Origin: an uncultured delta proteobacterium
GTDB taxonomy: Bacteria; Myxococcota; Myxococcia; Myxococcales; Myxococcaceae
Reading direction: 5' to 3'
DNA: 64,000 nt
Assembly: GCA_963771175.1 (NCBI GenBank)
Contig: CAVYSY010000054.1
Span: 64,001-128,000 of the forward strand
Shown: positions 8,728 through 48,869 of the stretch, piece by piece
Layout of the letters: each line of letters starts with the position of its first letter
Numbering within the stretch: the first letter of the stretch is position 1
Translations under genes and position numbers: made by a program
The notes under the pieces: model-generated
Database searches by the model: none
Told to the model about the DNA's origin: nothing
The model's input: only the letters and a program-made list of their open reading frames with translations

Positions 8728-8792
8728 TCCGGGAAGGTGTCGAAGGACTCGTTTCGACACCGCGTCCCCTACGAATCGTCTGACACCCTGCC
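8728..8792 (+). repeat. REP/REPIN-like element, copy A
   Basis: AGGTGTCGAAG-GACTCG-TTTCGACACCG palindrome followed by CCCTACGAATCGTCTGACACCCTGCC; related copies at 10880, 13236 and 45654. Confidence 0.85.
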
Positions 8793-8895
8793 TGCCTGGC
8801 GCACAGCCCGGGCGGCACCCGTCAGCGGCCCTCCTCGGCCCCTCGGCACCAGCCCGCCACCCTCAAAAGTGCCCCCATCTTTCCTTGGCTCCTTG

Positions 8896-8958
8896 AGTTT
8901 GTGCCGGGTTTGCGGGAACCCTTCACTGTGAAGGGTAGTCACAAACCCGGCACAAACT
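8896..8958. promoter_or_regulatory. 63-bp near-perfect palindrome upstream of the AlbA_2/ATPase gene (putative operator or hairpin)
   Basis: Outer arms AGTTTGTGCCGGGTTTG / CAAACCCGGCACAAACT; inner arms ACCCTTCAC-T-GTGAAGGGT. Confidence 0.65.
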
Positions 8959-8980
8959 TCTGGGTGAGGCACCAGCGGCC

Positions 8981-10814
8981 ATGCAGCGGATTCGAGAGGA
9001 AGTCGAGGTGGCGCTCAGCGGGGTGCTGGCGGGAACGGCCGCACACAAGCTGGAGTCCCCCACCTTGGACTTCAAGGAGCAGGGCCAGGGCGGGCTCAAG
9101 GATTTCATGCCGGGACATCGCGGGCGATGCCGTTTGCTTCGCGAACGCGGGTGGTGGAGCCATCATCATTGGGGTCGACAACAAGCAGGCGGGCCCGCAG
9201 GCATTCAAGGGAACCGACCTCGATTCCGAAGACGTCCGTAGGCGCGTCTACGAACTGAGCAACCCGCCCCTGCTCGTCGAGGCCGAGAACCGGCAATTCG
9301 CGGGTGCTCGTCTGCTCATCCTCTTCGTGCAGCAGAGCATCGATGTCCATGCGGACACTCAAGGGCGGGCCCGGCGCCGTGTGTCGACGGACTGCCTTCC
9401 CATGAGCCCCGACGAGGTGGCCCGTCTGCGAGAGGAGCGCCGGGACTTCGACTGGTCGAGCCAGCCTGGTGAGCGCACGCTCAGCGACGTGTCCCCGATA
9501 GCGCTCGAGGCGGCGCGCCGAAGCCTCGCCACCCTCACGGATGAGACGCGCCGCAAGTATGCGCGTCTCAGCGATCACGACTTGTTGAAGGCGCTCGGGG
9601 TTGTCTCGGAGAAGGGCGCTCTCCTTCGTGCTGGGGAACTGCTCTTCTGCGAAACATCCTGGTCTCCCTTGCTCCAGTACCACTACCGCCAGACACCGGG
9701 TGGCGAGCCTCGTGCCATCGAGCGCATCGAGACACCCCTCGTCCTTGCATTTGAAAAGGTGTTGGGGCTGGTGCAGGCCCGGCTCAATCAGACGCCGATA
9801 TCGCTTCCCAATGGCCAGCAGATCGAAATCGCGGACTTCCCCCAACTGGCTATTCGCGAGGCTATTGCCAACGCCCTCGTCCACCAGGACTTCCGCCTGC
9901 GTCGACCCGTCTTCATCGACCACTCCCCCGAGGTCTTCGTGGTCACCTCACCGGGACCGCTCGTCTCTGGAGTGACTCCTGAGAACATCCTGACGCATCC
10001 ACCCAGGCCGCGTAATCGCACCCTGGCCAAAGCTGCACGCACCCTGGGGTTCGCCGAGGAAGCCGGGCGAGGCGTGGATCGCATGTACCGGGAGATGATC
10101 CGTTCCGGGCGTGACCTTCCCCGAATCGAGGCTTCCTTCGAGCAGGTTCAGGTGAAGCTGGTTGGAGGTGCGCCCAGAACGCAGATCACCCGATTCGTTG
10201 CCCAACTCCCAGAACACGAGCGCGATGACACGGATACCCTGCTGATTCTCTTCCGCCTCTGTCGGAGCAAGACGGTCACGGCGTTGGAGATGGCACCCAT
10301 GCTGCAGAGGTCGGTGGACGAGGCCGAGGCGAGCTTGCGGCGACTCACGAACGACGAGTTGGCCATCCTGGAAGCCACTCGACAGACCGCACGCCTCGCT
10401 CATCCCGCATACCGACTGCGGGGCGAGGTGCTCAAGCGGCTCGGCTCGGCCGTGGATTACCAACGCCGAACCACGGACGAGTTGGATCGAAAAATCATTA
10501 CGCACGTCCGTGAATACGGAAAGGTGAACAATCGTACTCTGCAGAACTTCTTCGACGTGGATGTGCAGCGTGCACGCGACATCCTCTCGGACATGGTGGA
10601 GCGGCAGCTTCTGGTGAAGATTTCCGAGCAGCAACGGGGGCCCTCCGTGGAGTATGGTCCTGGGCCCAAGTTCCCCGGCAAGCGCAAGTCTCGCGCGAAG
10701 GGAACTCGGATGGACAAGCAGCGTGTCCGTTCCGCATCGCAAAAGAAAGACACCAAGACGCTGCCTCTGCCACTCAAGCCTCGCAGGCGAAGCAAGCCAC
10801 GTGGTAGCTCCTGA
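8981..10814 (+). CDS. AlbA_2 (Schlafen-like) + HATPase_c_4 (RecG-C-like) + winged-HTH protein, one frameshift near 9110
   Basis: ESPTLDFKE; VCFANAGGGAIIIGVDN; AIREAIANALVHQDF; SPGPL; PRNRTLA; EEAGRGVDRM; C-terminal HTH-like segments. Lower GC than its neighbours. Confidence 0.85.
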
Positions 10815-10879
10815 CGTGGTGCTTTGGGCTCAGCGGGTGAACCGTTCCGCCGCCGGAGCGCCGCCATCCTCGATCCGCT

Positions 10880-11040
10880 GGCAGGGTGTCGGACGAGTCG
10901 TAGGGGGCGAGGTGTTGGAACAAGTCCTTTGACTCGACTTTCACCATTTTTGACCGGCTCCCTCTGGCCTCCCTCTGGGAAGACGCCTCGTTCTTCCCTC
11001 TGAGGCGCCCAAAATGGCGAAAGTCGAGTTTGACACCTGA
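10880..11040 (-). repeat. REP/REPIN-like element, copy B (inverted relative to A), interrupted by a MITE
   Basis: Reverse complement reads ...TCAAAGGACTTGTTCCAACACCTCGCCCCCTACGACTCGTCCGACACCCTGCC. The terminal TTTGACACCTG is displaced to 11029-11039. Confidence 0.85.
10933..11028. mobile_element. 96-bp MITE-like insertion with 18-bp TIRs and a TTTGA direct repeat
   Basis: TIRs CTCGACTTTCACCATTTT and AAAATGGCGAAAGTCGAG (17/18 match); TTTGA at 10928-10932 and 11029-11033. Confidence 0.75.
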
Positions 11041-11074
11041 TACTGATACTGGGGACGTGGCCTCGAACCGAGCG

Positions 11075-11154
11075 CCAAGAGGGCCGTGCGCGCTCACGCA
11101 GTAGCCGCATCCATTCAGCTCGGACACGTGGAAGGTCTTGAGCGCGCTGGACAT
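11075..11154 (-). pseudogene. AhpD/carboxymuconolactone decarboxylase-like remnant
   Basis: VSELNGCGYCVSAH matches the NGCxYCxxxH motif; only about 25 codons remain. Confidence 0.55.
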
Positions 11155-11174
11155 TACAGCGCCCTCATCCCTCT

Positions 11175-11363: not shown

Positions 11364-11432
11364 GTGGGACCGCTCCTTGGAAGGCACGGTCTCCAAGCCA
11401 CGCGGTTCGTTACACGGGGCGCGCCACGCGCT

Positions 11433-11675: not shown

Positions 11676-11681
11676 GAGCGT

Positions 11682-13235: not shown

Positions 13236-13296
13236 AGGTGTCAAAGGACTCCTTCCGTTTCGAAGCCTTTGACACCCTATTTCGACACCCTATTTC
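13236..13296. repeat. REP-like palindrome, copy C, with a 13-bp terminal tandem duplication
   Basis: Perfect inverted repeat GGTGTCAAAGG...CCTTTGACACC; GACACCCTATTTC twice (13271-13296). Confidence 0.85.
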
Positions 13297-14702
13297 TTCA
13301 GGTCGAGCAGGAAGATGTCGCTCTCCCCGTGCGGGGTCAGCATGCCCGTTCCGAAGTCCACCGGTGCGTGGAAGTCCCCGAGGACGGTGCTCTCTCCCTT
13401 GCGATTCACGGCGATGTCCATGGGACGCACGAAGTCCGAGGCGTAGCCACGCACCCACCGGAGGTCTCCGTCGTCACTGTCGAACCGGGCGACGAACAGG
13501 TTGTCCTTGCTGCCCGGCCGGCCCTCCGGGCGTTTCGAGCCGATGCGGTCACCGGTCTCGTAGGTGCCCGTCACCACCACCCCGTTGCCATCATCCATGC
13601 CGAGGGCGCGCCCCGTATGCCCGAAGTGTCTCACCCAGCACTCGTCGCCATCCCGCTCGTAGGCGACGAGGAAGGCGTCATCCCCGCGGCCCGCACGCAC
13701 CGTGTGCCCGCGGAACGGGAAGCTCTCGAAGAAGGAGCCGGTCATCACCACTCGGTTGTCCTGGACGGCCACGTCCGCCGCCACCCCCTTGGCGCCCACC
13801 AGACGCCGTGTCCAGCGGAGGGCGCCTCGTGGCGAGTACTTGCGCAGGAGCGGATCCCCCACCGCCTCGATGGTGACGTGGGTGCCGCTGACGTAGAGGT
13901 TGTCATGTTCGTCCACCGCCAGACCGACATCCAAGGTGCCCAGCTCGCGGTCGAGGGTGCTCCAGAGCGACTCACCCTCGGACGAGAGCTTCACGAGGAA
14001 GCCCGAGGAGCCCTCGGCGTCAAGGGGCCCCTGTCCGAAATCCACGACTCCGTTGTACCAGCCGGTCACGGCGATGTTGCCGGCCCTGTCCGTCACGACC
14101 CGTGTCGCATTGAGGAAGCCCGTGCCGGGGAATCCGCGCGCCCAGAGGAAGCGGCCCTCGCTGTCGAGCTTCACTACGTAGCGCTCGAATGACAGAGGGC
14201 CACCGCCGTAATCGATGGTCGAGTCATTGCCGAGGTAGCCCGCGAGCACGATGTTGCGCTCCTTGTCGACCGCCACCGTCCTCACGTTCGTGAAGGCGCT
14301 GATGAAGGGACCGGGTGGCACAGGAGTGAAGATGCGGAACCACAGCAGCCCGCCATCGGGGCGGTACTTCGCCAGTGCGATGCTGAAGGTTCCATCGGGC
14401 GGCCCGAGGATGGGACCGGTGCCGAAGTCGATGCTCCCGGAGAACTCTGTCAGCACCACGAGGTTCCCATCCGCGTCCCGGACGACGGCGATGGCACGCT
14501 CGTCACCCGTCCCGTCGATGACCCGGACCCAACGGGTCGCGCCGCGCTGGGACGGTGTGGCCCGGCTGGCTTCGAGCTCGGGCTCCTGCTCCGGGAGTGC
14601 TCCGGTTTCCAGGGGCCCTCCGGTTTCCAGGGGCCCTCCGCACGCCAGGCCCACCGCGACCACCCATCCCCATACACCCATCCACCTGGCCCACCGTTTC
14701 AT
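13290..14702 (-). CDS. Beta-propeller (SBBP-like repeat) lipoprotein
   Basis: LAC lipobox; repeated D-x-x-GN-x-x-x-G...DFG-G...VKL-DG-x-x-W units; GGPLET twice near the N-terminus. Confidence 0.8.
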   Translation of the reverse strand: MKRWARWMGVWGWVVAVGLACGGPLETGGPLETGALPEQEPELEASRATPSQRGATRWVRVIDGTGDERAIAVVRDADGNLVVLTEFSGSIDFGTGPILGPPDGTFSIALAKYRPDGGLLWFRIFTPVPPGPFISAFTNVRTVAVDKERNIVLAGYLGNDSTIDYGGGPLSFERYVVKLDSEGRFLWARGFPGTGFLNATRVVTDRAGNIAVTGWYNGVVDFGQGPLDAEGSSGFLVKLSSEGESLWSTLDRELGTLDVGLAVDEHDNLYVSGTHVTIEAVGDPLLRKYSPRGALRWTRRLVGAKGVAADVAVQDNRVVMTGSFFESFPFRGHTVRAGRGDDAFLVAYERDGDECWVRHFGHTGRALGMDDGNGVVVTGTYETGDRIGSKRPEGRPGSKDNLFVARFDSDDGDLRWVRGYASDFVRPMDIAVNRKGESTVLGDFHAPVDFGTGMLTPHGESDIFLLDLKK

Positions 14703-15061
14703 CCTTCCTCCCTCCTCGACGGGCCCGAAGCAGGCCCATGCAAGGGTTGTGCACGGCCAGGAGGCAGAGAAGTGGACGCGAGGGAGGTACAAACGCCGCA
14801 TCCAAGACCCGAGCCGGGTCTGAAGATGGGGAGGGAGCCCACCTTCCTATCCTGGCAAGCATCGGCCGGCCCGGGGCAGGCAGGCTCACGGGACAGGGTG
14901 AACGCTCTCCTCTCGCATCCCTGACTGGGCAGGGAGCGTCCGTCATCGTTGAGATTCAGGCTGACCGGAGTCGGCGCCTCGGCGCGGAGCAGCCGGCATG
15001 CAGGCCATGAGACCTGAACGCCAGAGGCGCTTCCCTCAGCTCATGCTCGAGCGCGGAGCAA

Positions 15062-18612: not shown

Positions 18613-18769
18613 GATTTCCCCCGTGGCGTTGGTCACTGAGAAGCTCAGTCACCTGCGATGCTGCTGGCCACCTGGGGACGTCTACCGGATGCAAGGTTCG
18701 GAGGGACCAGCCCCTCGGGGCAGGTCCATTCACGATGTTGGCCGTGAAGCGGAATCCTTGGAGCGCAGT

Positions 18770-19675
18770 TCAGAAGCTCAAGCCGATGCCGGCGAACGGG
18801 CCGCCCATCCTGTCCCGGTGCCGCTCCCCGTCCAGGAGGCCGCGATCATCCAGCAGTAGCCCGCGCCAGCCTCCGCGCAGGGTCAGCATGCCCAGGTGGA
18901 CCGCCAGGCCGAGCTGTCCGTCCAGTTGCAGGTGGGGGAAGGGCACCCACTGCATTCGGCCCTCCAGGTCCAGCGCGCCGAACAGGCACCGCTCGAAGGA
19001 CAGGGCCATGTTGGGGCCGATGAAGATGGCGTCCGGTGCGCGCGCCCAGGCGAGACCACCTTCGACCCGGAGTCGGCCCCGCTCGCTCGCGTACGCCGCG
19101 AGTGTCACGTTCGCCTCCGCCAACTGGAGGTGGTCCGTCTCGTCCGAGCCGTCATCCGCGCGCAGGTTCATCGCCGTCAGCCGCGTGGAGACGCCCCAGC
19201 GGCGCCCCTCGAGGCCCAGGCCGAACCCCAGCGCCCCGCCTTCCTTGAGGGCGAGCCCCTCCACTCCCATCCGCACCAGCAACGAGTGGTTGGGCTCATC
19301 CGCCTCCTGCGTCGTCACCCAACGCGAGCGGCGGTAGTACGCGCCCGCGACGGCGGGAACCCATACAGGGCGCGGAATGATGACGGGCCTCACGGAGTCG
19401 GGGTCCGGGTTCTCGTCACCGTTGTTCGAAGGGGCACCGTCCGGCTCCTGTCCCACCGGCGTGGCGCGATGGACCCGACGGCGGGGACTGTCGGTGCGGT
19501 AGGCGTGGAACCTCCACCCCATGGAGCCGCCGGAGACGCGGGCGCCACCGGAAGAAGACGAGCCCCCCGAGGAGCGGGAGCCCCCCGACTTGCCGAAGCG
19601 GGCATCGGCGGCGGCGGGGGTGAAGAAGCACCCGGCCGCCAGCGCGGCACACATCATCTGCCTGGGGGTTGGCAC
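18770..19675 (-). CDS. Secreted/outer-membrane beta-barrel-like hypothetical protein
   Basis: GTG start after AGGAG; signal peptide ending ADA; G/S-rich linker; amphipathic strands; terminal Phe (GLSF). Confidence 0.7.
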   Translation of the reverse strand: MPTPRQMMCAALAAGCFFTPAAADARFGKSGGSRSSGGSSSSGGARVSGGSMGWRFHAYRTDSPRRRVHRATPVGQEPDGAPSNNGDENPDPDSVRPVIIPRPVWVPAVAGAYYRRSRWVTTQEADEPNHSLLVRMGVEGLALKEGGALGFGLGLEGRRWGVSTRLTAMNLRADDGSDETDHLQLAEANVTLAAYASERGRLRVEGGLAWARAPDAIFIGPNMALSFERCLFGALDLEGRMQWVPFPHLQLDGQLGLAVHLGMLTLRGGWRGLLLDDRGLLDGERHRDRMGGPFAGIGLSF

Positions 19676-19927
19676 AGGGAGGTCTCCTGGGAAAACGTGC
19701 CAGCTCATCCCAGCATGTTCCCCGCCCGCGTTCCTCCGCTCCTCCGAGGGGTGACACCTGCCCGACAGGTTGATGGCCGGTTCATGAACACAGCCGCGCC
19801 AGTGTTTTCGCAACGTGACGGCTCCGAGGGGATTCCCATTCGCTGAGAAATAATCAGGCCTCGGGTCCCTCCTGACTCGCGCGGCGCGGACGCCCGTGAG
19901 AGCATGGGCGATGGCGGAGGCCCGGCG

Positions 19928-21622
19928 ATGACGATTCGCGCCAAGGTGTTGTTGTTCGCGGCGATGGCCATCGCGCTCGTATGCCTCATGGGCGTTCACC
20001 TCTTCGTCGGCGCTCGCAACGGCCGGGTGATTCGCGAGCATCTCACGGCCACCCAGGGGCAGCTCGACGGCCTGGGCCGGGTGAGTGCCATGGCCTGGCC
20101 CTACCTCAACGAGCTGGTCCAACTGCGGCATGTGACGGGGAGCACCGAGCGCGTGCGGCTCGAGTTGCTGGAGCGGCTGGAGGTGGAGCTGGCATCGCTC
20201 GAGGAGAGCATGACTCGGGAGTGGCGGTTGCTGCCGGAGAGGACTCCCGAGGTCGAGCGGCGCGAGCAGGAGGAGCTCCGGAAGGACCTGTGGCGATGGG
20301 CGGAGCGGGCGGAGGCGCGCGTGAGTTCCATCCCACGGGGCTCGCCGGTCGGCTCCGTGGTGGAGTGGTCGCTGTACACGGAGTTCGAACAGACCGTGGG
20401 CCGGCGCATCGAGGAGATGCGGCACGCGGAGCAGGCCGAGATGGACGTGTTGCGTCTACGGTGGGACGAGAGCGAGCGGACCGGCCAGCAGCTCGCGATG
20501 CTCGTCCCCGCCATCTGCATCGTGCTCGTGCTGGTGCTCGGCTTCGCCATCCTCGTCCCCATGCAGCGCTCGCTCCGGAGGCTCACGGAGGTGGCCGAGC
20601 GCATCGGGCGCGGGGACTTCGATATCCGCACCGCGGTGGCGGGCCACGACGAGTTGGGCACGCTCGCGCGCGCCTTCGACCGCATGGCCGGCGAGCTCCG
20701 GACGATGCTCGACGAGAAGCAACGGCTGATACGGGCCGAGGCCGAGTCCTCCGAGCGCGAGGCCCGCCGCTACCACGCCCTGCTGGAGGGGATGGTGCTC
20801 GCGCGCACCGCGGATCTCGGCGAGGCCAACGCCCGGCTGCAGGAGAGCCTCCAGCAGCTCCAGGAGGCCCAGGAGCAGCTCCTCTTCGCGGATCGGCTCG
20901 CCTCCGTGGGGCGGCTCGCCGCGGGCGTGGCGCATGAGATCAACAACCCGCTCTCCTTCATCCTCAGCAACCTGCGCTTCGCCCGGGGCGAGCTGCGGGA
21001 CCTGGTGAGTGCGCCCTCCGAGGAGGACCGGCAGGAGTTGCTGTCGGCGCTCGACGAGGCGCATGAGGGCGCCGAGCGGGTCCGCTTCATCGTGCAGGAC
21101 CTCAAGACGCTGTCGCGGCCGGATGACGTGGCGCTCAGCGCGGTGAGCCTGGAGTCGGTGGTACGCAGCGCGGCCAAGATGGCGCACCACGAGGTGCGCG
21201 ACCGCGCGCGGCTGGTGCAGGAGTGCGACGGGGTGCCTCCGGTGCGCGCCAACGCGGCACGGCTGGGTCAGGTGTTCCTCAACCTCTTCCTCAACGCGGC
21301 GCATGCCATCGACCCGGGCCGCGAGAGGGAGAACGAGATTCGCGTGGTGGCCCGCGTCTCCTCTCCGGGCCGGGTCACCGTGGAGGTGCGCGACACCGGC
21401 TCCGGCATTCCGGCCGAGCACCTCGGGCGCGTCTTCGAACCGTTCTTCACCACCAAGCCCATCGGCATGGGCACGGGGCTGGGGCTGCCGGTGTGCCATC
21501 GCATCATCACCGCGCTCGGCGGGGAGATTCGCGTCGAGAGCGAGGTGGGGCGCGGCACCACCTTCTTCATCACCCTGCCCGCGGCCGAGGACTCCGGCAC
21601 TCCCGCGCAGTCGGCGGCCTGA
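19928..21622 (+). CDS. HAMP-domain sensor histidine kinase
   Basis: Two TM helices; HAMP DELGTLARAFDRM; H-box AHEINNPL; NLFLNA, DTGSG, FFTTK, GTGLGL. Confidence 0.93.
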   Translation: MTIRAKVLLFAAMAIALVCLMGVHLFVGARNGRVIREHLTATQGQLDGLGRVSAMAWPYLNELVQLRHVTGSTERVRLELLERLEVELASLEESMTREWRLLPERTPEVERREQEELRKDLWRWAERAEARVSSIPRGSPVGSVVEWSLYTEFEQTVGRRIEEMRHAEQAEMDVLRLRWDESERTGQQLAMLVPAICIVLVLVLGFAILVPMQRSLRRLTEVAERIGRGDFDIRTAVAGHDELGTLARAFDRMAGELRTMLDEKQRLIRAEAESSEREARRYHALLEGMVLARTADLGEANARLQESLQQLQEAQEQLLFADRLASVGRLAAGVAHEINNPLSFILSNLRFARGELRDLVSAPSEEDRQELLSALDEAHEGAERVRFIVQDLKTLSRPDDVALSAVSLESVVRSAAKMAHHEVRDRARLVQECDGVPPVRANAARLGQVFLNLFLNAAHAIDPGRERENEIRVVARVSSPGRVTVEVRDTGSGIPAEHLGRVFEPFFTTKPIGMGTGLGLPVCHRIITALGGEIRVESEVGRGTTFFITLPAAEDSGTPAQSAA

Positions 21623-21798
21623 GCAGGACGGCGGCGCGGGCCGGCGCGTGTTGGCCGTCGGACGTACGGCGGGTGCAAGGGCTTTCCGAGCGCAAACTGT
21701 TCAACGCTCGCACGCGTGAAATTCCTCACGCCCCCAGCGTCGGGAAACCGGCATCCCCATGCTGTCGTCGCAAGTCGTCCAACACATGGAGGTCACGG

Positions 21799-22200
21799 AT
21801 GCCGCCGCGTGGAGTGAAGAACCCGAAGCGAGTGAGGCAGTACCAGAAGATCAAGCAGTCGGCGCGCAAGCAAGGCGCGAGCGTGGGGCGGGCCGAGGAG
21901 CTCGCCGCCCGCGTGGTGAACAAGCAGCGCCGCAAGGCGGGTGAGACGAAGGGCGCCTCCAAGCGCTCCTCGACGAAGACGGCGGCGAAGAAGCTCGCGT
22001 CCAGTTCGCGCCGTGCGAAGCCGGCCCGCGGCACGCGCAGCACCGGGGCCAAGTCGCGCACCCTCAAGGCGGCGGGCAGGACGGGCCGCAAGACGGGCAC
22101 CACGTCGCGCTCGAGCAGCCGCTCCGGCGCCTCTCGCAAGACGAGCAGCTCGTCGCGCGCCCGCGGCCGGAGCGCCTCCTCGTCGCGCTCGAAGAAGTAG
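21799..22200 (+). CDS. Small highly basic K/R/S-rich protein
   Basis: MPPRGVKNPKRVRQYQKIKQSA...AEELAARVVNKQR with a histone-like tail; GGAGG RBS. Confidence 0.75.
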   Translation: MPPRGVKNPKRVRQYQKIKQSARKQGASVGRAEELAARVVNKQRRKAGETKGASKRSSTKTAAKKLASSSRRAKPARGTRSTGAKSRTLKAAGRTGRKTGTTSRSSSRSGASRKTSSSSRARGRSASSSRSKK

Positions 22201-22252
22201 CTGAGGGCGCGAGCAGTTGACGGCCGTGCTAGCTTTCGTGCCACGGTCCTCC

Positions 22253-22939: not shown

Positions 22940-22958
22940 ACGAATCGCCTGACACCTT
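22940..22958 (+). repeat. Half REP-like element
   Basis: ACGAATCGCCTGACACC matches 8771-8787 at 16/17. Confidence 0.65.
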
Positions 22959-23097: not shown

Positions 23098-23343
23098 GTG
23101 CTGTGCTGTGGCGCAGTATGCGCCGACTCCAAACCGACACGGCGGGAACAGCGCCCGAGTCTAGCGAAACCGGCTCGCCATCGCATCGCATGGCGCGAGC
23201 GCTCGGGTTTCCAGACGCCCTTCCGGCCAGCGTCGCTGACGCTCCGACTGTGGCGGGCCCCTGGAAGAGAAGTCCTACGGCCCCCTCGCCATCGCCCGGT
23301 TTTTAGGGTAAATGTGGATTTCCAATTTTCAAAGGAGTTGAGC

Positions 23344-35379: not shown

Positions 35380-35381
35380 GT

Positions 35382-37411
35382 TCAGGCTCCCAGGCGCTCG
35401 ATGAGCGTCTCGGGGGTGACGGGGCCGGCGGAGGGCGCGGCGCGCAGCAATTGCCGGTGCAGCAGCTGCGTCGAGAGGACGCCGACGAGGGCCATGTTGT
35501 CGGTGTTGGAGAACTGGGCGCGTCGGGCCTGGGCCTGGCACTTGGCCCACAGGCGCGCGACGGCAGCGGGCTCGAAGACGCCCGCCTCGCGCAGGGCGGC
35601 CTCGCCCAGCACCTCGTCCACCCACTCGGGGCGCTTGTCCCCCACGAAGCGACAGCGCGTCCGGCGCGCGGTAGGGCTGCTTCTTGCGCCGCAGGATCGC
35701 GGCGGGCAGGAGCTCCTCGGCGGCGCGCTTGAGGACGTGCTTCTCGTCGAGGACGCGCAGCTTGTAGGACGGGGGCAGCGAGCTCGCGAGCGCCACCACG
35801 TCGGTGTCGAGGAAGGGGAAGCGGCCCTCGACCGAGTGCGCCATCAGCATGCGGTCGCCCTGCGAGGAGAGGAGGTAGCCGGAGAGCAGCGTGCGGATCT
35901 CGAGGTACTGGTCCTGCGCGAGGGCGACCAGCGGGCGAACTCCGGCGGGCAGCGTGTCGAGCAGCCGCGGCGACGACGTCGCAGCCCGCTCGGCCGCCCG
36001 CCGCATGCTCGGCGCGAGAAGAGCCGCTTGAGGGCGCTGGTGGTGTGCCAGCGCGGCTCGTGCGCGAAGCCGGGCTCGCCGCCACGCCGCGAGGTCGCGG
36101 CCGAAGAACTGCCGCGCCATCGCCCGCTGGGAGACCGGCGAGCGCGCGAGGTACGGGATAGAGCCGCTCGAGCAGGCGCGGCCGCAGCCGCGAGCCGGGC
36201 TGCCGCGCCCAGAAGCGGCGCACCTTCGCCCTCGCGGAAGAGGTCGTAGCCGGCGAACATCTCGTCGGCGCCCTCGCCGGTGAGCACGACCTTGATGCCG
36301 GCCTCGCGCACGAGCCGCGAGAGCAGGAAGAGCGGCGCCGGCGCGGTGCGCAGGAGCGGCCGCTCGGCGTGGGCGACGACCTCCGGGAAGACGCGCGGCG
36401 ATGTCCTCGCGCGACACGACGACCTCGCGGTGCTCGCTGCCGAGCCGCTGGCCATGAGCGCGCTGGAACTCCGTCTCGTCGTACTCGGCGTCGTCGAAGC
36501 GCAGCGAGAAGGTGCGAAAGCGGCTCCCCCGTGGCGTCGCGCCCGAGCGCGGCGACGAGCGAGCTGTCGAGGCCGCCGGAGAGGTAGCTGCCCGACCGGC
36601 ACGTCGGCGCGCAGCATGCGCAGGCGGGTCGCCTCCTGCGAGCGCGTCGCGCACCGCGCTCCGCCGCCTCGTCGAGCGAGCCGTGGAAGCCGCCCGTCGC
36701 CGGCCTCCGGGAAGCGCGGCTGCCAGAAGGGACGCTCGTGGCGCGCTCCGCCGCGCCGCGAGGTGCGCACGTGGCCGGGCTCGCAGCTCCGTCGACGCCC
36801 GCGAAGACGCTCTGCGGCGGCACCACGCGTCCAGAAGGTGAAGGTCTCGCTCGAGGCCCGACCGGGTCGAACGCGCGCGGCAGCGAGGGCTCGCCGGCGA
36901 AGATGCGCCTTCACCTCGCTCGCGAAGCACGAGCCGCCCGTCGTGCTCGCACGACGTAGAGCGGGCGCACGCCGAGCCGGTCGCGCGCGAGCACGAGCGT
37001 CTCCTCGCGCGTCGTCCCAGAGCGCGACGGCGAACTGGCCGTTGAAGCGCTCGAAGGCGCCTTCGCCCCACTCCTCGTAGGCGTGGACGATGACCTCGGT
37101 GTCGCTCCGCGTGCGGAAGCGGTGGCCCAGCGCGCGAGCTCCTCCCGCAGCTCGACGTAGTTGAAGATCTCGCCGTTGAAGACGACCCAGAGCGTGCCGT
37201 CCTCGTTGGCGAGCGGCTGCTGGCCGGTGGCGAGGTCGATGATCGAGAGCCGCGCGTGGGCGAGGCCCGCGCGGCGCGATCGCGATAGACGCCGAACTCG
37301 TCGGGGCCGCGGTGGCGCAGAGCGCGCCGACCATCCGCAGCGAGCTGCGTCGCGCGTCGGGCGGCGGCCGCGGCCTCCCGGAGGCGCGACGATGCCGGCG
37401 ATGCCGCACAT
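35382..37411 (-). CDS. asnB: Asparagine synthase (glutamine-hydrolysing)-like amidotransferase, many indels
   Basis: [65 protein letters not shown]. Confidence 0.9.
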
Positions 37412-37416
37412 CGACG

Positions 37417-38400
37417 TCAGACCTCGCCGGACCGGCTGCGACCAGCAGCGGCGGCGCGTGCAGGTAGCGGGTCGGCGCGCCGCTTGGCTGTCGATGTCCC
37501 GGTAGACGCGCTCGACCTGCGCCTCGGTCGAGGCCGACCGCCGGCGCCACCTCCGCGGCGGGCACGCTGGTGGTCGTGCGCGTAGAGGCACAGGTCCATG
37601 CTGTCGTAGGGCAGCGCGAAGTAGAACTCCTCCTGCGTCTGCGGCATGCGAGTAGGTGTCGGTGGTCGGCGGGCGCGCGGCGGATCTCCTCGGGCACGCC
37701 GAGGTAGCTCGGCGAGCGCGTAGACCTGGGTCTTGTAGAGGTGGGCGATGGGCTTGAAGTCGGCGGCGCCGTCGCCCTGCTTGACGAAGAAGCCCTGGTC
37801 GTACTCGAGCCGGTTGGGCGTGCCCGCCACCGCGTAGTTGAGCCGGTCGGCGTGGTAGTACTCGATCATCTTGCGCACGCGCTGCTTGAAGTTGGTGGCG
37901 GCGACGAGCTGCAGGTAGGCGTCGAGCGGCATGCGCGCGGTGCGCAGCTCGCCCGCGGGGTCTGCGACGGTGAGCTGGGAGACGTTGAGGCGCTCGCTCT
38001 CGAGGATGGACGGCAGCGTCATCTTGCAGCGCCAGCCCTCGCCGTAGTCCGGGAAGACCGTGCGGATGGCCTCGTCCTGGCGCGCGTAGCAGCCGGCGGC
38101 GGCGAGCGTGGGCGCGATGTCCTCGACGGCGGACGCGACGCCGAGCGCCTCGACCACCTGGCGGCCGAGGCGCAGCGAGTCGGCGGAGGAGTCGCGCTCG
38201 GGCATGAGGAGGCCGAGCACCCGCTCCTGGCCGAGCGCCCGCGCGCAGAGCACGGCGACCACCGAGCTGTCGATGCCGCCGGAGACGCCGACGACCGCAC
38301 CGCGGCGCTTCAGGTCTCCGAGCACGTGCTCGCGGATGGCGAGCTCCGCGTCACGAGCGACCGACGCGGCGTCGATCTCGAGCACACTTTTCGAGAACAT
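37417..38400 (-). CDS. nadE: NadE-like ATP pyrophosphatase (NAD synthetase paralog), frameshifted
   Basis: [48 protein letters not shown]. Confidence 0.85.
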
Positions 38401-38678
38401 GGGCGGCCCCCCCCGGGCTCCACTCCCTGCTGCATGGCCTTGGCTCCGCAAGGACCCTACGGGAGACGACCAGGGCATCCCTGGCATTGGATGCCAGGAT
38501 TGGCGTCTCACGGCAGAGTTTGTATAGGAGGGGAACTCGCCGCGAGCTGTGAAGCGAGGAGAAGACGGCTGCTTGACAATGAATTTCGGAAAAGGCGCTT
38601 CCGGACTTCAATGGGTTCGTGAGCCGACTTTTCTCCTGCCCAACCGTATGAGGCGCGCGGGACCGTCAGCGCGGCCAC

Positions 38679-39565
38679 TCACTGCCGAGCGATTGGGGCG
38701 GCGGCTTGGCGCTGAAGATGGGCGCGTAGCACTCTCCCTGGTGCTCGTAGAGATCGTCCGGGCATGGGGCCTTGAGCCGTGAGGCATCCAGCAGGCGCCC
38801 ACCAGCTCTACCTGGACGTGGCGAGTGCAGGGGGGGCGCTTCTGTCCTTTGAAGGGCTCGCGAGGCAGGGGCCGGGCGAGCACAGGCTCCCCCTGGGGCG
38901 TGGTGTCCGCGAGCCAACCGCTGCTGAAAGGGTCCGGCGTCTCGACTGCCGTCGGTACCTCGTGGCTCACGGGCGCTGGCGCGGCTCTCGCCAAGGGGTC
39001 CGCACCGCTCGGCGGTTGGGACTCGGGACACAGGCGGACCAGCGCGAAGAGCAGGGCACACACCCCGGCGGTGCCCGCCAGCACCAGCCCCAGGCGCCGC
39101 CAGGGGCGAGGCTCGTGGGAAGTAGGGACGACCTGGGCCATGCGCCCCACTCCCTCGCGCACCTCCTCGAACGTGCACACCAGCGACTCCACGGAGTGCC
39201 TGTCGGGGGCAACGGACCAGGGGGTGTGCTCCACCTCCATGGCGAGATAGCCCGGGGACGCCGAGGAGATGCAGCGCACCCTCCAGTCCGTCAGCGGCAC
39301 CCGTCCTCGGTGGCGGGCTTGAGCACCAGGGCCGTTGCCCCGCTCGTCTCGTGTGTGGCCCGGTAGAGCTCCCCCTGGCTGTGCGCGGCCTGCGGCACCT
39401 GCTCCTGGATGCGGTACGGCCCCAACTGCTCCGGTTCCTCCCGGCTCGACTCGGACTTCTTCTTCGTGCCCACGCGCGCTCCTCGCTGGCCTCTCCGCCT
39501 GCTCGAGGCCTGAGGCTTCTATCTGCACCGGGTTGAGCCCCCGCTCCAGGAGGTGCACGGTGCAT
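38679..39565 (-). pseudogene. Degenerate Ser/Thr-kinase-derived membrane protein, copy 1 (frameshifted)
   Basis: LGPYRIQEQV...GELYRATHETSG (kinase N-lobe-like), a TM helix, then Cys-rich PFKGQKRPPC...GACW...PCPDDLYEHQGECY; paralog at 43647. Confidence 0.65.
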
Positions 39566-39772
39566 CAGGGGGTGCCCTACTCCACAGGTGCTGAACCTCA
39601 CGCTCCGCGGCAGCGTGGCCCGGGCGCAGTGTCTGCATGAGCTGAGAACGGCCTCCGCGGCTGGCCTCACGTGGCTGGCGCAGCGCAGGGACAAGAGCGC
39701 CACCTTCCAGCTCGTGGGTCTCGGGCGCCCACTGAATGTGCAGAAGAGCCGGAATTCTGGCAACCTCGGGGG

Positions 39773-43544: not shown

Positions 43545-43556
43545 TCGCCGCGGCTC

Positions 43557-43610
43557 CCGGCGCCTGCTCGAGCGCCGGGGCCTGTTCGCCTGGTGAGGCC
43601 CGGCGGGGCT
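43557..43610 (+). repeat. Orphan 54-bp exact copy of the 3' end and flank of the radical SAM gene
   Basis: Identical to 47611-47664. Confidence 0.95.
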
Positions 43611-43646: not shown

Positions 43647-44257
43647 TCACTGCCCGAGCGATTGGGGCGGCGGCCTGGCGCTGAAGACGGGCGCATAGCA
43701 CTCCCCCTGGTGCTCGTAGAGGTCATCTGGGCAGGGGGCCTTGAGCCTGTGAGGCATCCAGCAGGCGCCCACCAGCTCTACCTGGACGTAGCGAGTGCAT
43801 GGGGGGCGCTTCTGCCCTTTAAAGGGCTCGCGCGGTAGGGGCCAGGAGAGTACAGGCCCCCGCTGAGGCTCGCCGTCCGCGAGCCAACCTCTGACGAAAG
43901 GGTCCGGCTTCTCGGCGGCCGTCAGCACCTCAGGGCTCACGGGCGTTGGTGCGGCTCTCTCCAAGGGGTCCGCACCGTTCGGCGGTTGGGTCTCAGGGTT
44001 CAGGAGGACCAGCAACAAGAGCACGGCACTTCCGCTCGTCTTGCGTGTGGCCCGGTAGCGTTCTCCCTGGCTGTGCGTGGGTTGCGGCACCTGCTCCTGG
44101 ATGCGGTAGGGCCCCAACTGCTCCGGTTGCTCCCAGCTCGACTCGGCCTTCTTCTCCGTGCCCACGCGTGCTCCTCCCAGGCCTCCTCGTTCGCTCAAGG
44201 CCTGAAGCTCCTATCTGCACCGGGTTGGGCGCTCGCTCCAGGAGGTGCATGGTGCAT
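43647..44257 (-). pseudogene. Kinase-derived protein, copy 2, with an internal deletion
   Basis: Highly similar to 38679-39565 but lacks about 270 bp between the TSG motif and the TM helix. Confidence 0.7.
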
Positions 44258-44306
44258 CAGGGGGCGCCCTGCCCTACAAGTGGCGTGGCTCTCTGGATCT
44301 TCCTGC

Positions 44307-44424
44307 CTACGAAGGTGTCAAACACCTCGTACGGCACAGGTGCAGCGCAACGCGCCAGGCGAAGTGTTTGACACCTTCCCCGACACCTTCCCCCGGGGAA
44401 GACGCCTCGTTCTTCCCTCTGAGG
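44307..44424. repeat. REPIN-like hairpin, copy D, with a 12-bp terminal duplication
   Basis: Inverted repeat GAAGGTGTCAAACACCTCG...CGAAGTGTTTGACACCTTC (18/19); GACACCTTCCCC twice; then GGGAAGACGCCTCGTTCTTCCCTCTGAGG, also present at 10977-11005. Confidence 0.85.
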
Positions 44425-44442
44425 TGCTCAAGCGCTCCGGCG

Positions 44443-45630
44443 CTACCGGTAGAAGTGGTCCGCGAGGAGGCGGGCGTTGAAGAGCATGGCGTCGTAGCTC
44501 GTGTAGACACCGTGCCCGAAGCACGTCGCCAGGCAGTTCGGCAGGGCGCCCGTGCCCCGGTCGCCGTAGTCGACGAGGTAGCTGAACCCGTCCCGCGGCA
44601 CGCGCGCGCCGTGGCGCACGTGCTGGAGCCACGCCTTCACGTCATAGCCCTCGCCGAGGATGGCATCGAGCCGCGCGGCCAGCTCCCGCTCCTTCGCGCT
44701 GCCCGGCGGCAGGTCCGAACCGGCGATGCCCCACTGATGCACGTAGTCGCCACTCTCGGTGTTGAGGACGCCGGCGACGGTGCTCCCGCGCGGCTCCGCG
44801 CCCCGGTGGTTGATGACGTGGAGGACGCGGCACCGCCGGCCCGCGGCCCAGCCATAGCGCGGCGGCATGCCGAAGGTGGCGATGTCGAGCCGCGCGCGGG
44901 CGACCCCGCGCGCCATCTCCTGCAGCGCCTCCGTGGGCTCGCCCGCGTCGCGCACGGCCTGCCAGAGCGCCTCCGCGGTCCGCGCCGGGTAGACGAGCTG
45001 CGTGAGCAGGGCGAGCACCTGGCCGCCATGGCTGTGCCCGAGCAGCAGCGTCCGCTTGCTCCCGAGCTCCGAGGTGCCCAGGAGCCGCAGCAGCTCCACG
45101 GCCGCGCGCAGGCGGGCGACGTGGTTGTTCGCCGAGGACCAGACGAAGCGCGTCGCGCGGAGGTCGCCGCCCAGCGCCTTCTCGAAGAGCGAGACGTACT
45201 CGGGGGTGTAGTTGCCGAGATCTCGCAGGACGCGATCGCTCGGGAGCTTGGAGAGGCGGCGCAGGGACGGCATGAGCCCCGGACTCAGCGCCGAGAGGGG
45301 CCCCTCGAGCGCGGCGAGCAGCAGGGTGGGATCATGGCCGACGAAGGTGCCATGCACGAAGACGACGTGGCGCACCCCGGCGCGGCGCAGCCGGCGGCCC
45401 GCCTGCTCCATCGCCTCGCGCCAGGCGGGAGATTGGGCCTCGAGGACGGGCGTCTCGCGAGCGAACGGCGGCATCGCTTCGCGCGCCCGCACCGCGAACG
45501 TCCCGGGCCGCGGCGCGGCGTCGTACTGCTGGGGTTGGCAGAGGGCCGGCGTCGGGCGGAGCCGCCACGCGATGACGAGCCCGGCGATCGCGGCGGCGAG
45601 GAGGAGGAGCGTGAGGGCGAGCCACAGCAT
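44443..45630 (-). CDS. Membrane-anchored alpha/beta hydrolase
   Basis: N-terminal TM helix; FVHGTF; FVWS; GHSHGG nucleophile elbow; late His (FGHG). Confidence 0.75.
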   Translation of the reverse strand: MLWLALTLLLLAAAIAGLVIAWRLRPTPALCQPQQYDAAPRPGTFAVRAREAMPPFARETPVLEAQSPAWREAMEQAGRRLRRAGVRHVVFVHGTFVGHDPTLLLAALEGPLSALSPGLMPSLRRLSKLPSDRVLRDLGNYTPEYVSLFEKALGGDLRATRFVWSSANNHVARLRAAVELLRLLGTSELGSKRTLLLGHSHGGQVLALLTQLVYPARTAEALWQAVRDAGEPTEALQEMARGVARARLDIATFGMPPRYGWAAGRRCRVLHVINHRGAEPRGSTVAGVLNTESGDYVHQWGIAGSDLPPGSAKERELAARLDAILGEGYDVKAWLQHVRHGARVPRDGFSYLVDYGDRGTGALPNCLATCFGHGVYTSYDAMLFNARLLADHFYR

Positions 45631-45653
45631 GCCGTGGCAGCTTATCGGGAAGC

Positions 45654-45746
45654 CGGATGGGGTGTCCGGATGGGGTGTCAGACGACTCGTAGGGCGCGAA
45701 GGTCGGAACGAGTCCTTTGACACCTGACCGGGGACACCTGACCGGG
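45654..45746 (-). repeat. REP/REPIN-like element, copy E, with tandem duplications at both ends
   Basis: Reverse complement AGGTGTCAAAGGACTCGTTCCGACCTTCGCGCCCTACGAGTCGTCTGACACCC; CGGATGGGGTGTC twice and GACACCTGACCGGG twice. Confidence 0.88.
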
Positions 45747-45804
45747 GCGGGCCCGCACCTTCATCGCGGTCTAGAGTGCTCACGACCCCTTTCCTGGAGG
45801 GCCC

Positions 45805-46554: not shown

Positions 46555-46564
46555 GCACGGGCTC

Positions 46565-46578
46565 TCTGACACCCTGCC
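46565..46578 (+). repeat. Half REP-like element
   Basis: TCTGACACCCTGCC, identical to 8779-8792, 10 bp after the methyltransferase stop. Confidence 0.55.
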
Positions 46579-46666
46579 GGAGTCCGCGCGCCAGCGAAGC
46601 AGGCTGGCGGACTCGGTCCCCTGGCGCCGACTGCGCCGCCCGCGCCAGGGGGCTACGTTTGCCCTC

Positions 46667-47650
46667 ATGAGCTGGCCTGCGTATCTGGCGCTCCATGAAA
46701 GCGGAGAGTTGAAGCGGCGTGCGGAGGAGGCGGTCGCCGCGCTGGGTTCCTGCCGCCTCTGCCCGCGCGACTGTGGCGTGGACCGACTGGCCGACCGGAA
46801 GATGGCCTGCAAGGTGGGCCGGAAGGCGCGCGTCTCGGCGCACTTCGCGCACTTCGGCGAGGAGGACTGCCTGCGCGGCTGGAACGGCTCGGGCACGATC
46901 TTCTTCTGCGTGCTGCAACCTGCGCTGCGTCTTCTGCCAGAACTGGGAGACCTCGCAGGACGGGCGAGCGGCCGCGAGGTGGCCGCCGCACGAGCTGGCC
47001 GAGCTGATGCTCGACCTGCAGGAGCGGGGCTGCCACAACATCAACTTCGTCACGCCCGAGCACGTGGTGCCGCAGATCCTCGAGGCGCTGGTGCATCGCG
47101 GTCGAGCGCGGGCTGCGGCTGCCGCTCGTCTACAACACCGGCGCCTACGACTCGGCTGGAGAGCCTGCGCGCTGCTCGACGGCGTGGTCGACATCTACAT
47201 GCCGGACTTCAAGTTCTGGACGCCGCGAGTCCGCCGCGCGCGGTACCTGCAAGGCGCGCGGACTATCCGGAGCGCGGCGCGGCGGACGATTCGCGAGATG
47301 CACCGGCAGGTGGGCGACCTGGTGGTCGACGAGCGACGGCCTCGCGCGGCGCGGGCTGCTCGTGCGCCACCTGGTGATGCCGGGCGGCGCTGGAGGAGAC
47401 GCGAGGCGATCCTGGGCTGGCTCGTCGCGAGGAGCTCGGCCCGGACACGTACGTCAACGTCATGGACCAGTACCACCCGGACGGGCGGGTGCTGCGCGAG
47501 CCCCAGCGCTTCCCCGCGCTGACCCGGCCGCTGTCGCGGGGCGACTTCCAGCGGGCCGTGGAGTACGCGCGGGAGGCGGGGCTGCGGCGGCTCGACGAGC
47601 GGAGGCCGCACCGGCGCCTGCTCGAGCGCCGGGGCCTGTTCGCCTGGTGA
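46667..47650 (+). CDS. PflX-like radical SAM protein, many indels
   Basis: CRLCPRDC, HFGEE, GSGTIFF, CNLRCVFCQN, HNINFVTP, DIYMPDFK, VRHLVMPG, MDQYHP. Confidence 0.88.
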
Positions 47651-47664
47651 GGCCCGGCGGGGCT

Positions 47665-47691
47665 CCGGGAAGGTGTTTGACACCTTCCCGG
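47665..47691. repeat. Compact REP-like palindrome, copy F
   Basis: CCGGGAAGGTGT-TTG-ACACCTTCCCGG, a perfect 12-bp stem. Confidence 0.85.
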
Positions 47692-47707
47692 GACGAGCCC
47701 GGGGAAC

Positions 47708-48304
47708 CTACGTCGCCTCGGGTGCCCCGAGAACTGCCGCGGCCCAGGTGGGGAGGGGGGAGTGACGCTCGACGGCCATGCCCCGCTCCAATCGTCCGAG
47801 CAGGCGGTACGGATTTCGGGCATCGCTGTTGTCGTACAGACGCGTCTCGTCCACGAACCTCGCCGCCTGCGCCAGGTTGGCGAGCGTGCGGGGGAAGCGG
47901 CTGAAGAGCTTCTCGTCCGGCACGTCATGTCCGCCCTGGGCTACCCGGCTGATGACACGCGCCTGCGACAGCTCGGGCGAGTCCAGCCCGATGAACAGGA
48001 GGACGACCCGGTAGCCGGCCGTCATGGCTTCACGCAAGAAGGCGAGCTTGTCCCCAGCCGGGTCGGAGAACACGGTTTCCATGCAGAAGCTCTCGCCCTC
48101 CGTGACGAGGGCTCGTCGCTCGGCATCCGCCGCTCGCGCGGCGGCGTACGAGGCACCGGCCGGGTCCTCGGGGGCAATCGCGAGCGCGAGGAGATCGGCG
48201 TTGACGAAGCGCAAGCCGGTCACCCGGAGCCTCCGCTCGAAGAACGTGGACTTTCCCGCCCCATTGGGGCCGGCGAGCACCACGAGCGTGGGCTGCGTGC
48301 TCAA
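47708..48304 (-). CDS. Zeta-toxin-like P-loop ATPase
   Basis: AGPNGAGKST, FVNAD, ETVFS, RVAQGGHDVP, YDNS. Confidence 0.88.
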   Translation of the reverse strand: MSTQPTLVVLAGPNGAGKSTFFERRLRVTGLRFVNADLLALAIAPEDPAGASYAAARAADAERRALVTEGESFCMETVFSDPAGDKLAFLREAMTAGYRVVLLFIGLDSPELSQARVISRVAQGGHDVPDEKLFSRFPRTLANLAQAARFVDETRLYDNSDARNPYRLLGRLERGMAVERHSPLPTWAAAVLGAPEAT

Positions 48305-48684
48305 CGTGGATCCGTACCTTCCGGGACGAACACCCGCCCGACGAACTTCCCACGCGTTCGGGTCCCGTCCGGGTTCTCACGCACGATGCCGCCCGGCCGC
48401 TCGGGATCGGCGCTGTAGAGGGGCTGGCTCGAGGCCGCGAGGTGGGCACGCATCTCGTCCTGCCCCTCGGTCGACTCCGCGTAGGTCAGTGCGTCCTCGA
48501 GCGACAGCAACTCTTTGCCGCGGCGCTTGAGCGCCCGGATCTGCCCGTGGCCAAGTACCGCCTCCACGGCCATTCCCAGTCGCACCCAGTGTTCGATCTG
48601 GCCCGTGATGGAGCGATCGCTCGTCTCCGCTTCCTCACGCGCCAAACTCACGATCTCATCGCTAATGCGCAGGGGAAGTCCCAT
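48301..48684 (-). CDS. ParD-like RHH antitoxin
   Basis: MGLPLRISDEIV...RSITGQIEHWVRLG; 4-bp overlap with the ATPase gene. Confidence 0.8.
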   Translation of the reverse strand: MGLPLRISDEIVSLAREEAETSDRSITGQIEHWVRLGMAVEAVLGHGQIRALKRRGKELLSLEDALTYAESTEGQDEMRAHLAASSQPLYSADPERPGGIVRENPDGTRTRGKFVGRVFVPEGTDPR

Positions 48685-48718
48685 GACCCAACCTCCACAT
48701 CGCAAGATTCTACGTTCA

Positions 48719-48735
48719 TGTAGCAATATGCTACA
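48719..48735. promoter_or_regulatory. Palindromic operator of the TA operon
   Basis: TGTAGCA-ATA-TGCTACA, about 35 bp upstream of the antitoxin start. Confidence 0.6.
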
Positions 48736-48838
48736 GGCCCGCCTCGTCGGCAACGTTCTGTGTTCTCGGTAGGTTGTTGTCCCATGGCTCGCCTGCCCGC
48801 TCGCTTCCACTACAGGAGATGAAGCGGCCGGCCAGCCA

Positions 48839-48869
48839 CTACGAAGGTGTCAAACACCTCGTACGGCAC
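48839..48869 (+). repeat. REP-like arm, 31-bp exact repeat of 44307-44337
   Basis: CTACGAAGGTGTCAAACACCTCGTACGGCAC. Confidence 0.9.

Follow-up and report, generated by a model that had tools for sequence, protein, structure and literature searches.

What are the GGTGTC...GACACC palindromes that recur between genes in a 64,000-nucleotide stretch of an uncultured myxobacterial genome, and do they take part in the gain and loss of the genes beside them? The stretch (hereafter the window; C54:64001-128000, with positions below given in window coordinates unless a contig is named) belongs to an assembly, G000, of 9.83 Mb in 58 contigs with 69% G+C and 82% completeness, and homologues of its proteins are named as Archangium and Cystobacter. 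A first-pass annotation had listed nine loci as related elements at the borders of accessory genes, and had read them either as an undescribed myxobacterial family of REPINs, the hairpin-forming doublets of repetitive extragenic palindromes (REPs), or as recombination sites; related sequence is present at 9/9 of these loci. We consider it very probable that the palindromes are the terminal inverted repeats (TIRs), the miniatures (43-, 52- and 62-nt doublets of a left end, LE, and a right end, RE), the solo ends and the partial end duplications of one ~1.09-kb transposon family, the gene of which resembles those of the REP-associated tyrosine transposases (RAYTs).

The repeat family and its hairpin

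A scan of the genome with a count of copies, as the first-pass annotation had proposed, found the sequence TTTGACACC 126 times against about 24 occurrences expected from composition. Alignment of these sites yields a 52-nt imperfect palindrome, GGTGTCAGACGAYTCGTAGGGGGCGAGGTGTCGGAACGARTCCTTTGACACC, continued by tips of 6–9 nt. A model of this unit, built by iterated nhmmer searches, has 65 matches in the genome, 34 of them full length, and three lie in the window (8736-8786 on the minus strand, 10886-10933 and 45675-45724 on the plus strand; loci E1, E2 and E6 below). The extended motifs match the window 6 and 4 times compared with 0.00 in 100 shuffles, a test that is partly circular because the patterns were derived from the same data; the bare hexamers GGTGTC and GACACC, with 32 and 31 window occurrences, are uninformative alone. 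As single-stranded DNA the 52-nt unit folds with −12.5 kcal/mol (z = −3.5), with 16 pairs between the arms conserved in 32–34 of the 34 distinct copies; the doublet is an imperfect hairpin, a feature of inverted doublets of the REPIN type.

The genome holds 153 ends (46 clusters, 28 singletons), 41 of which are stuttered, with 'GACACC plus 6–9-nt tip' repeated in tandem one to three more times; the tip is faithfully repeated, as a true tandem, in 30 of these 41. On contig C49 the longer partial copies form ladders that all reach the outer tip, and units within clusters share their orientation (26/29 on this contig). This 52-kb contig is a dense array throughout, with 29 unit matches, a broken copy of the transposase gene at 36775-37703 and partial right-end ladders at 30.6–30.9 kb. 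A 20-nt right-arm motif, allowing at most one mismatch, has 54 matches in G000 and between 0 and 17 in each of 17 other genomes of the genus, being present in 15 of the 17. Among 23 genomes outside the genus it was found in one (3 matches; another genus of the same family) and in none of the other 22, and a reversed-pattern control gave 0 in every genome. The family is genus-wide and expanded in G000; the relatives compared are distant species representatives of 70–95% identity.

The cognate transposase

Two further classes of sequence with TTTGACACC at their end form inverted pairs separated by ~1.1 kb, and the open reading frame (ORF) between them carries the motif SNHFHLLV and a conserved tyrosine. 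The cognate element is ~1.09 kb long and encodes, in a 930-bp ORF, a 310-aa RAYT-like HUH/Y1 protein. The gene was located by tblastn at 24 loci, comprising 2 intact copies (one of them on contig C44), 3 that are near-full but broken, and 19 fragments, with identities of 80–93% for the intact and near-full ones. Whether Y1 genes are flanked by the motif had been proposed as a check, and both LE and RE are present in 4/5 near-full copies, the stop codon of the gene lying inside the RE (...CTT TGA CACC). The shared TIR core is GGTGTCAAAGGAYTCG plus the 6–9-nt tip and is unrelated to GTAG REPs, and the right arm of the 52-nt unit is the last 16 nt of the RE of the Y1 element. Ends also gather around the gene: 69/153 are found no more than 10 kb from a Y1 locus, where 5.8 would be expected, 23 of those 69 being the genes' own ends. 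Among the 19 gene fragments, the RE side is kept by 9 and the LE side by 1. The shared inverted ends and the clustering of ends with gene copies bear out the suggestion that the elements belong to a RAYT-like Y1/HUH transposase.

In the protein, both histidines of the HuH motif SNH-F-H-LLV (H63 and H65) and the tyrosine Y122 are invariant in 25 aligned homologues, as is the whole Y motif Y122-x3-H126-G127, which reads Y-x3-HG and not Y-x3-NP. The best family matches are Pfam Y1_Tnp, the only Pfam family found at E<=0.01, with no helix-turn-helix (HTH) domain in the C-terminal half, and NCBIfam REP_Tyr_transpos (E=5.7e-13, 139/146 profile positions); NCBIfam transpos_IS200 reaches 12 bits against a cut-off of 55. 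Homologues bear the JGI label 'REP element-mobilizing transposase RayT'. The top Foldseek match of an AlphaFold model (pLDDT 78.3) was 4er8_A, in which the Escherichia coli RAYT binds a REP hairpin (E=1e-4 and a target TM of 0.62 over 146 columns); IS200/IS605 TnpA proteins (ISDra2, IS608) came next, the IS200/IS605 structures matched being 2xm3, 2vhg and 2a6o. The fold match is limited to the N-terminal ~145 residues, the C-terminal half of ~165 aa being without a clear match. Judged by its sequence, the protein is a divergent member of the HUH/Y1 superfamily.

The nine loci

The full 52-nt doublet, consisting of a variant left end, LE', and an RE, is best seen at E1 (8728-8792, minus strand; core 8736-8787 plus tips; nhmmer E=2e-14, model positions 1-51). 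The 11-6-11 dyad that the first-pass annotation had described in this copy does exist, as a 9-bp stem with an 8-nt loop that forms the inner third of the doublet. E6 (45654-45746, plus strand, as are all the following) holds a full doublet at 45674-45724 (E=9e-14) that is stuttered on both sides, its left tip CGGATGGGGTGTC and its right tip GACACCTGACCGGG each being present twice. At E2 (10885-11052) the doublet occupies 10885-10933 (E=1e-11, model positions 1-48), and the terminal TTTGACACC, the last 9 nt of the doublet, has been shifted to 11029-11037 by a second hairpin element of ~95 nt; a 6-nt tandem, CTGATA, follows the displaced sequence.

Two loci are miniatures of other composition. 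E3 (13237-13296) is a 43-nt LE-RE miniature (13237-13279) made of the transposon's own LE, GGTGTCAAAGGACTC, and RE, GCCTTTGACACC, and is followed by a tandem copy of GACACC and a 7-nt tip, CTATTTC; the minus-strand ORF 13290-14801 ends within this stutter, which includes its stop codon. E5 (44307-44431) belongs to a second TIR subtype and is a miniature of 62 nt (GGTGTCAAACACCTCG...CGAAGTGTTTGACACC) whose GACACCTTCCCC is stuttered; the element and its stutter (44307-44393) are followed by a piece of the second hairpin element (44389-44431). Of the 8 genome matches to the second subtype, 4 fall in the window, and E9 (48839-48869) is the 31-nt left end of this subtype alone, identical to 44307-44337 (100% over 31 nt).

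The remaining loci are shorter. E4 (22941-22958) is a solo arm, CGAATCGCCTGACACC (22941-22956), plus a tip, and lies 10 nt after the stop codon of a glyoxalase-like gene. In E8 (47665-47691) an LE tip is fused directly to an RE tip (CCGGGAAGGTGT/TTGACACCTTCCCGG). E7 (46565-46578), the weakest of the nine, is a 14-nt solo tip, TCTGACACCCTGCC, identical to 8779-8792 and located 11 nt after a methyltransferase stop codon; 10 copies of its 13-nt core CTGACACCCTGCC were counted in the genome, compared with an expectation of 0.4. Of the further features ascribed to these loci, proximity to a stop codon, put at up to about 15 bp, is roughly borne out by E4 and E7 at the distances just given, E8 at 17 nt and E5 at 19 nt, with E3 overlapping one; E1 and E8 do adjoin truncated or duplicated sequence; and the extended motifs are absent from 49.4–64 kb, as had been noticed. 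The window also contains a minus-strand fragment of the Y1/HUH transposase gene at 7812-7955 (48 aa matched at 81% by tblastn, corresponding to residues 90-137 of the 330-aa query ORF), which is internal to the gene and without ends of its own; 134 nt of it are multi-copy at ~90% identity in relatives.

A proposed mechanism

We hypothesize that the Y1 enzyme binds the hairpin of paired arms on single-stranded DNA, nicks it at or near the outer edge of the 6–9-nt tip past GACACC, and rejoins the strand. The short doublets would be mobilised in trans, like miniature inverted-repeat transposable elements (MITEs) or REPINs; since the REPIN-like unit is too short to encode anything, it presumably depends on the Y1 enzyme in trans. 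Repeated or abortive rounds of nicking and rejoining would leave the tandem 'GACACC+tip' stutters and the copies that are truncated on the inside and anchored at the end, and the same reaction may occasionally join an end to foreign DNA, which would account for some, not most, accessory-gene borders. We infer these steps, as they are based on the chemistry of the IS608 and RAYT families, the structures of which were matched by fold.

Islands and joints

The genomic setting was examined by mapping the window on five relatives. Positions 1-4078, 18760-22206 and 49392-64000 form a conserved backbone, and two islands, at 4.1–18.8 kb and 22.2–49.4 kb, are missing from the relatives' backbone and hold 9/9 elements as well as the Y1 fragment. 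The site of the 27-kb island is a 24–36-bp gap between convergent genes in two relatives, G015 and G008, and is occupied by different DNA in other relatives. The genes of the islands, identified by Pfam searches on long ORFs, are typical accessory genes and include a Schlafen/AlbA_2-HATPase_c_4 gene, an ECF sigma factor, a methyltransferase, a zeta/ParD-like pair and an HTH antitoxin.

In the window, a joint coincides exactly with a tip three times, at 8727/8728, 47664/47665 and 48869/48870. At the first, a 64-nt copy of the 3' end of a backbone gene (8664-8727, 95% identical by self-BLAST to its source at 18770-18833; both are matched by the relatives' orthologues) is cut exactly at the tip of E1. 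At the second, E8 is adjoined by 47611-47664, which is an identical copy (self-BLAST, 100%/54 nt) of the 54-nt stretch downstream of an ADH gene at 43557-43610. The third concerns the 31-nt left end, which in E5 and E9 is joined at the same base to two different sequences; the inner edge of E9 is joined to an unrelated toxin-antitoxin-like module, with homology to the relative G004 from 48867. Homology to relatives also begins or ends 0–25 nt from E5, E6, E7 and E9. In G004 itself, a flank common to six other genomes begins at the first base past a stuttered tip, and in G007 a solo tip lies about 40 nt from the same break. Such tip-exact joints suggest that nicking and rejoining may sometimes join an end to foreign DNA.

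How far this extends to the acquisition and loss of genes, which the first-pass annotation had attributed to the elements in one of its two readings, can be judged from a tally of module borders in both islands, made by hand from match ends and therefore approximate. An element lies within 100 nt of 7/35 borders, so the elements are not the general cause of the mosaic; part of the earlier proposal stands, in that some joints lie exactly on tips, and we conclude that they are linked to the mosaic arrangement of genes and probably create some of the joints in it. A bolder version, which we consider unlikely, is that the transposon ends serve as reusable joints, an HUH nick at an end tip being sealed to other DNA by a reaction of a one-ended, rolling-circle-like or template-switching kind that strings together and reshuffles single genes or gene pairs. 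If true, this would be an integrase-free, single-stranded DNA route to accessory-gene arrays in large myxobacterial genomes, and it would have left as footprints the dense gene-element-gene run at 44.3–48.9 kb, truncated copies anchored at an end, and the breaks in synteny that fall exactly on tips in several species.

Weighing the evidence

Several observations weigh against a transposon family as the source of the palindromes, or against its activity. In its left arm, GGTGTCAGACGAYTCGTAGG, the 52-nt unit departs from the LE of the Y1 element at about 5/20 positions, and no Y1 gene copy with this exact left arm was found. The protein misses the curated cut-offs of its best families (21.1 bits against 23 for Pfam Y1_Tnp, 49 against 80 for REP_Tyr_transpos), and a direct sequence search of the Protein Data Bank gave no match. 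One arm pair covaries among the 34 copies (C-G 20, T-A 7, T.G 6, C.C 1), modest evidence that concerns a single pair and could reflect shared descent. Housekeeping-like frames are broken in the assembly, and the 'broken' Y1 copies may therefore be sequencing errors. A clean empty site was found at 0/20 unit loci from six relatives compared with G000 and at 0/2 lone G000 copies compared with the genus; one flank was variable at every unit locus compared, including two of the 20 that were also compared with the genus. Neither an insertion or excision polymorphism nor a transposition event was observed among the distant species representatives, and we therefore infer mobility in trans as well as the target and cleavage sites. 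As to the part played in the mosaic, 28/35 module borders are more than 100 nt from any element, both islands are free of elements at their outer borders, and duplicated or transduced flanks are not enriched genome-wide (27/153 ends against 40/306 controls placed 400 and 800 nt further out).

These last tallies are what would be expected if the ends and miniatures were passive passengers that persist in dispensable intergenic DNA, the joints at their tips being coincidences of dense packing with no role in gene gain, loss or shuffling. The homologues of island modules, which are scattered in relatives, agree with this: element ends were found at 0/14 of their loci and at 0/6 loci of the gene at 44443-45630. 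On the other side stand the three window joints exactly at a tip with duplicated or truncated sequence opposite, the homology in G004, shared by six genomes, that starts at the base past the stuttered tip, and the finding of conserved DNA on both sides at 0/22 units examined. As regards gene shuffling the pure-passenger explanation is a serious alternative, one that we would put at somewhat below even chances. Classical, domesticated REPINs, in which a single-copy, vertically inherited RAYT maintains host-serving REP doublets, would account for the hairpin, for the E. coli RAYT as best fold match and for the family and homologue names; likewise, the two inverted arms with a short spacer that form a hairpin and the specific pairing of repeat type and enzyme resemble REPIN-RAYT systems as presented by Bertels and Rainey (2011, PMC3337134). 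The RAYTs described there are ~500 bp long, single-copy and flanked by REPINs, whereas the gene considered here is 930 bp long, present at 24 loci, many of them decayed, and has TIRs of its own that include its stop codon; its doublets number in the tens (34 full-length, 65 model matches) and not in the hundreds (PMC3337134), and its Y motif is Y-x3-HG, not the Y-x3-NP given in PMC6006769. Copy number and gene anatomy contradict the classical system, which we regard as very improbable. What survives of the 'undescribed myxobacterial REPIN family' is the hairpin-forming 52-nt doublet, for which no description was found among the matches listed in literature on RAYT, TIRYT, REP/REPIN/MITE and myxobacteria; a REPIN-RAYT system in the strict sense does not fit.

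The hairpin and its position could alternatively point to immobile host sites such as terminators, mRNA-stabilising hairpins or operators of DNA-binding proteins, as the elements are intergenic, often just past stop codons, and the fold of −12.5 kcal/mol is stable. Yet there is no T-run, GACACC being followed by tips of the TTCCCGG type, E1–E3 are not among the 4 terminator-like sites in 8–14 kb, and no Rfam family matches; the idea that the elements act only as terminators does not hold, and terminators and known RNAs were rejected on the terminator scan and the Rfam search. The elements moreover point with or against the gene beside them, do not occur in the conserved backbone or in the relatives' orthologous genes, and share their ends with a transposase gene, and host sites are accordingly very improbable. 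Least probable of all are sites at which a tyrosine recombinase would insert and excise gene cassettes, whether of the Xer/dif or the integron attC type. Dyad symmetry, the single gene or gene pair between successive elements at 44.3–48.9 kb and the co-oriented units of C49 would suit such sites; against them, the dyad is an internal piece of the 52-nt repeat with its many copies, whereas dif is one site per replicon, and the genes between elements face both ways. There were 0/8 Phage_integrase matches on the element-rich contigs C49, C44, C54, C6, C28 and C30, and 0/84 window ORFs matched a recombinase family at E<=1e-5. The Xer/dif proposal of the first-pass annotation and the attC variant were both dropped for these reasons, a multi-copy repeat and no nearby recombinase.

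Relation to known systems

The closest known kind is the TIRtron with its TIRYT enzyme, not the classical REPIN-RAYT system. TIRtrons, as described by Di Nocera, De Gregorio and Rocco (2013, PMC3733652), have a RAYT-like HUH/Y1 gene between long terminal inverted repeats instead of GTAG REPs. The present family shares with them the non-GTAG TIRs that flank such a gene, the overlap of one TIR with the gene end, and the moderate abundance of TIRs dispersed as singles, dimers and clusters (PMC3733652). It differs in several respects. The TIR CCGGGNAGGTGTCAAAGGAYTCG does not fit GGGGWSAS, which is common to many, not all, TIRYT TIRs (PMC3733652), and GGGG[AT][CG]A[CG] was not found by eye in ...AGGGTGTCA... 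or ...AAGGTGTCA...; the gene is multi-copy with many wrecks; and stuttered tips are not described for TIRtrons in the sections of PMC3733652 at hand. TnpA-Y1 proteins of subclass 2.1 combine the class-2 Y motif Y-x3-NP with a C-terminal HTH (Bac_DnaA_C, HTH_23 or HTH_28), and all 20 TIRYTs of this subclass have an HTH, according to PMC6006769; the 310-aa protein has neither this motif nor an HTH detected by Pfam. Myxobacteria have 0 occurrences in PMC3733652 and in PMC6006769.

The HUH/Y1 fold also links the family to IS200/IS605 elements. These have hairpin-forming ends, short non-autonomous derivatives and co-oriented copies within clusters, likenesses to the present family, and their ends are different subterminal hairpins, not inverted repeats. 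The protein differs from theirs in its score of only 12 bits with transpos_IS200 and in its ~165-aa C-terminal half without a clear fold match. Two functional analogies may be added. Integron attC arrays similarly have an imperfect palindrome recurring between single genes or gene pairs, as at 44.3–48.9 kb; here, in contrast, no Phage_integrase is found on C54, C49 or C44, gene orientation is mixed and most cassette-like borders lack the repeat. The end-anchored truncations and the ends joined to foreign DNA resemble one-ended capture by IS91/ISCR elements and Helitrons, from which the family differs in that there is no genome-wide evidence of flank transduction.

Neighbouring repeats and genes

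The second hairpin element mentioned above is a small repeat with the core GGGAAGACGCCTCGTTCTTCCCTCTGAGG and the inverted ends CTCGACTTTC..GAAAGTCGAG, found at 10926-11031, at 44389-44431 and at C52:177560-177635; 10970-11012 and 44389-44431 are 91% identical by self-BLAST. It lies inside or next to main elements, each time against TTTGAC(ACC). Directly past the tip of E1, at 8791-8893, lies a different dispersed repeat of ~100 nt with about 29 other genome copies at ~80–90% identity, one of which adjoins a tyrosine-recombinase fragment on C38. It is followed by a 63-nt inverted repeat (8896-8958, 86% self-complementary) at the upstream end of the Schlafen/AlbA_2-HATPase_c_4 gene (8901-10814), which looks like an operator. 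In G004, a sequence of 80–90 nt (L055 1390-1479), present in several copies of 89–99% identity in nearly all genomes of the genus, stands directly against the left tip of a unit.

A gene family for a ~257-aa protein is represented at 38666-39590, at 43647-44282 and at L051 7456-8229, with 14 loci in G000 and many per genome throughout the genus. The protein has an N-terminal 'GPYxIQEQV', one membrane helix predicted by eye and a C-terminal domain with 4 cysteines, and has no Pfam match. A second element carrying this membrane-protein gene was considered as the source of the 52-nt unit and set aside as weak: the full LE'-gene-RE arrangement occurs in one G000 and one G004 copy, and among the 14 gene copies in G000 an RE lies within 150 nt downstream of 5 and an upstream arm is present in 1.

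At the right edge of the 27-kb island there are two toxin-antitoxin-like modules, one with Zeta_toxin/AAA_33 and ParD_like (47708-48810) and one in which a truncated upstream ORF is followed by an HTH_3 antitoxin-like gene (48872-49390). About three tandem repeats of ~125 nt, 88% alike, occupy 23430-23805 inside the ORF 23098-23811. At 53947-56851, 1-1439, 33817-37697 and 3035-6917, housekeeping-like genes (malic enzyme, an AMP-binding enzyme, asparagine synthase/AMP-binding and a class-V aminotransferase) are split into overlapping frames, which suggests assembly indel errors or real pseudogenes.

Implications

RAYT-like enzymes and their repeats are widespread, and their movement of DNA in cells is still largely inferred. 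Most RAYT-like genes are single-copy and look immobile. The family described here differs in having intact multi-copy genes, matching miniatures and scars in the form of stuttered tips, end-anchored truncations and tip-exact joints. For annotation, it accounts for palindromes that recur, and for short pseudogene remnants, in the strain-specific islands of Archangium and Cystobacter genomes. It also occurs throughout a genus that can be cultured and has several complete genomes, and this combination of intact genes, miniatures and scars makes three questions experimentally approachable, namely at which position the enzyme cleaves, whether it can mobilise the miniatures in trans, and whether accessory genes are reshuffled by the joining of transposon ends.

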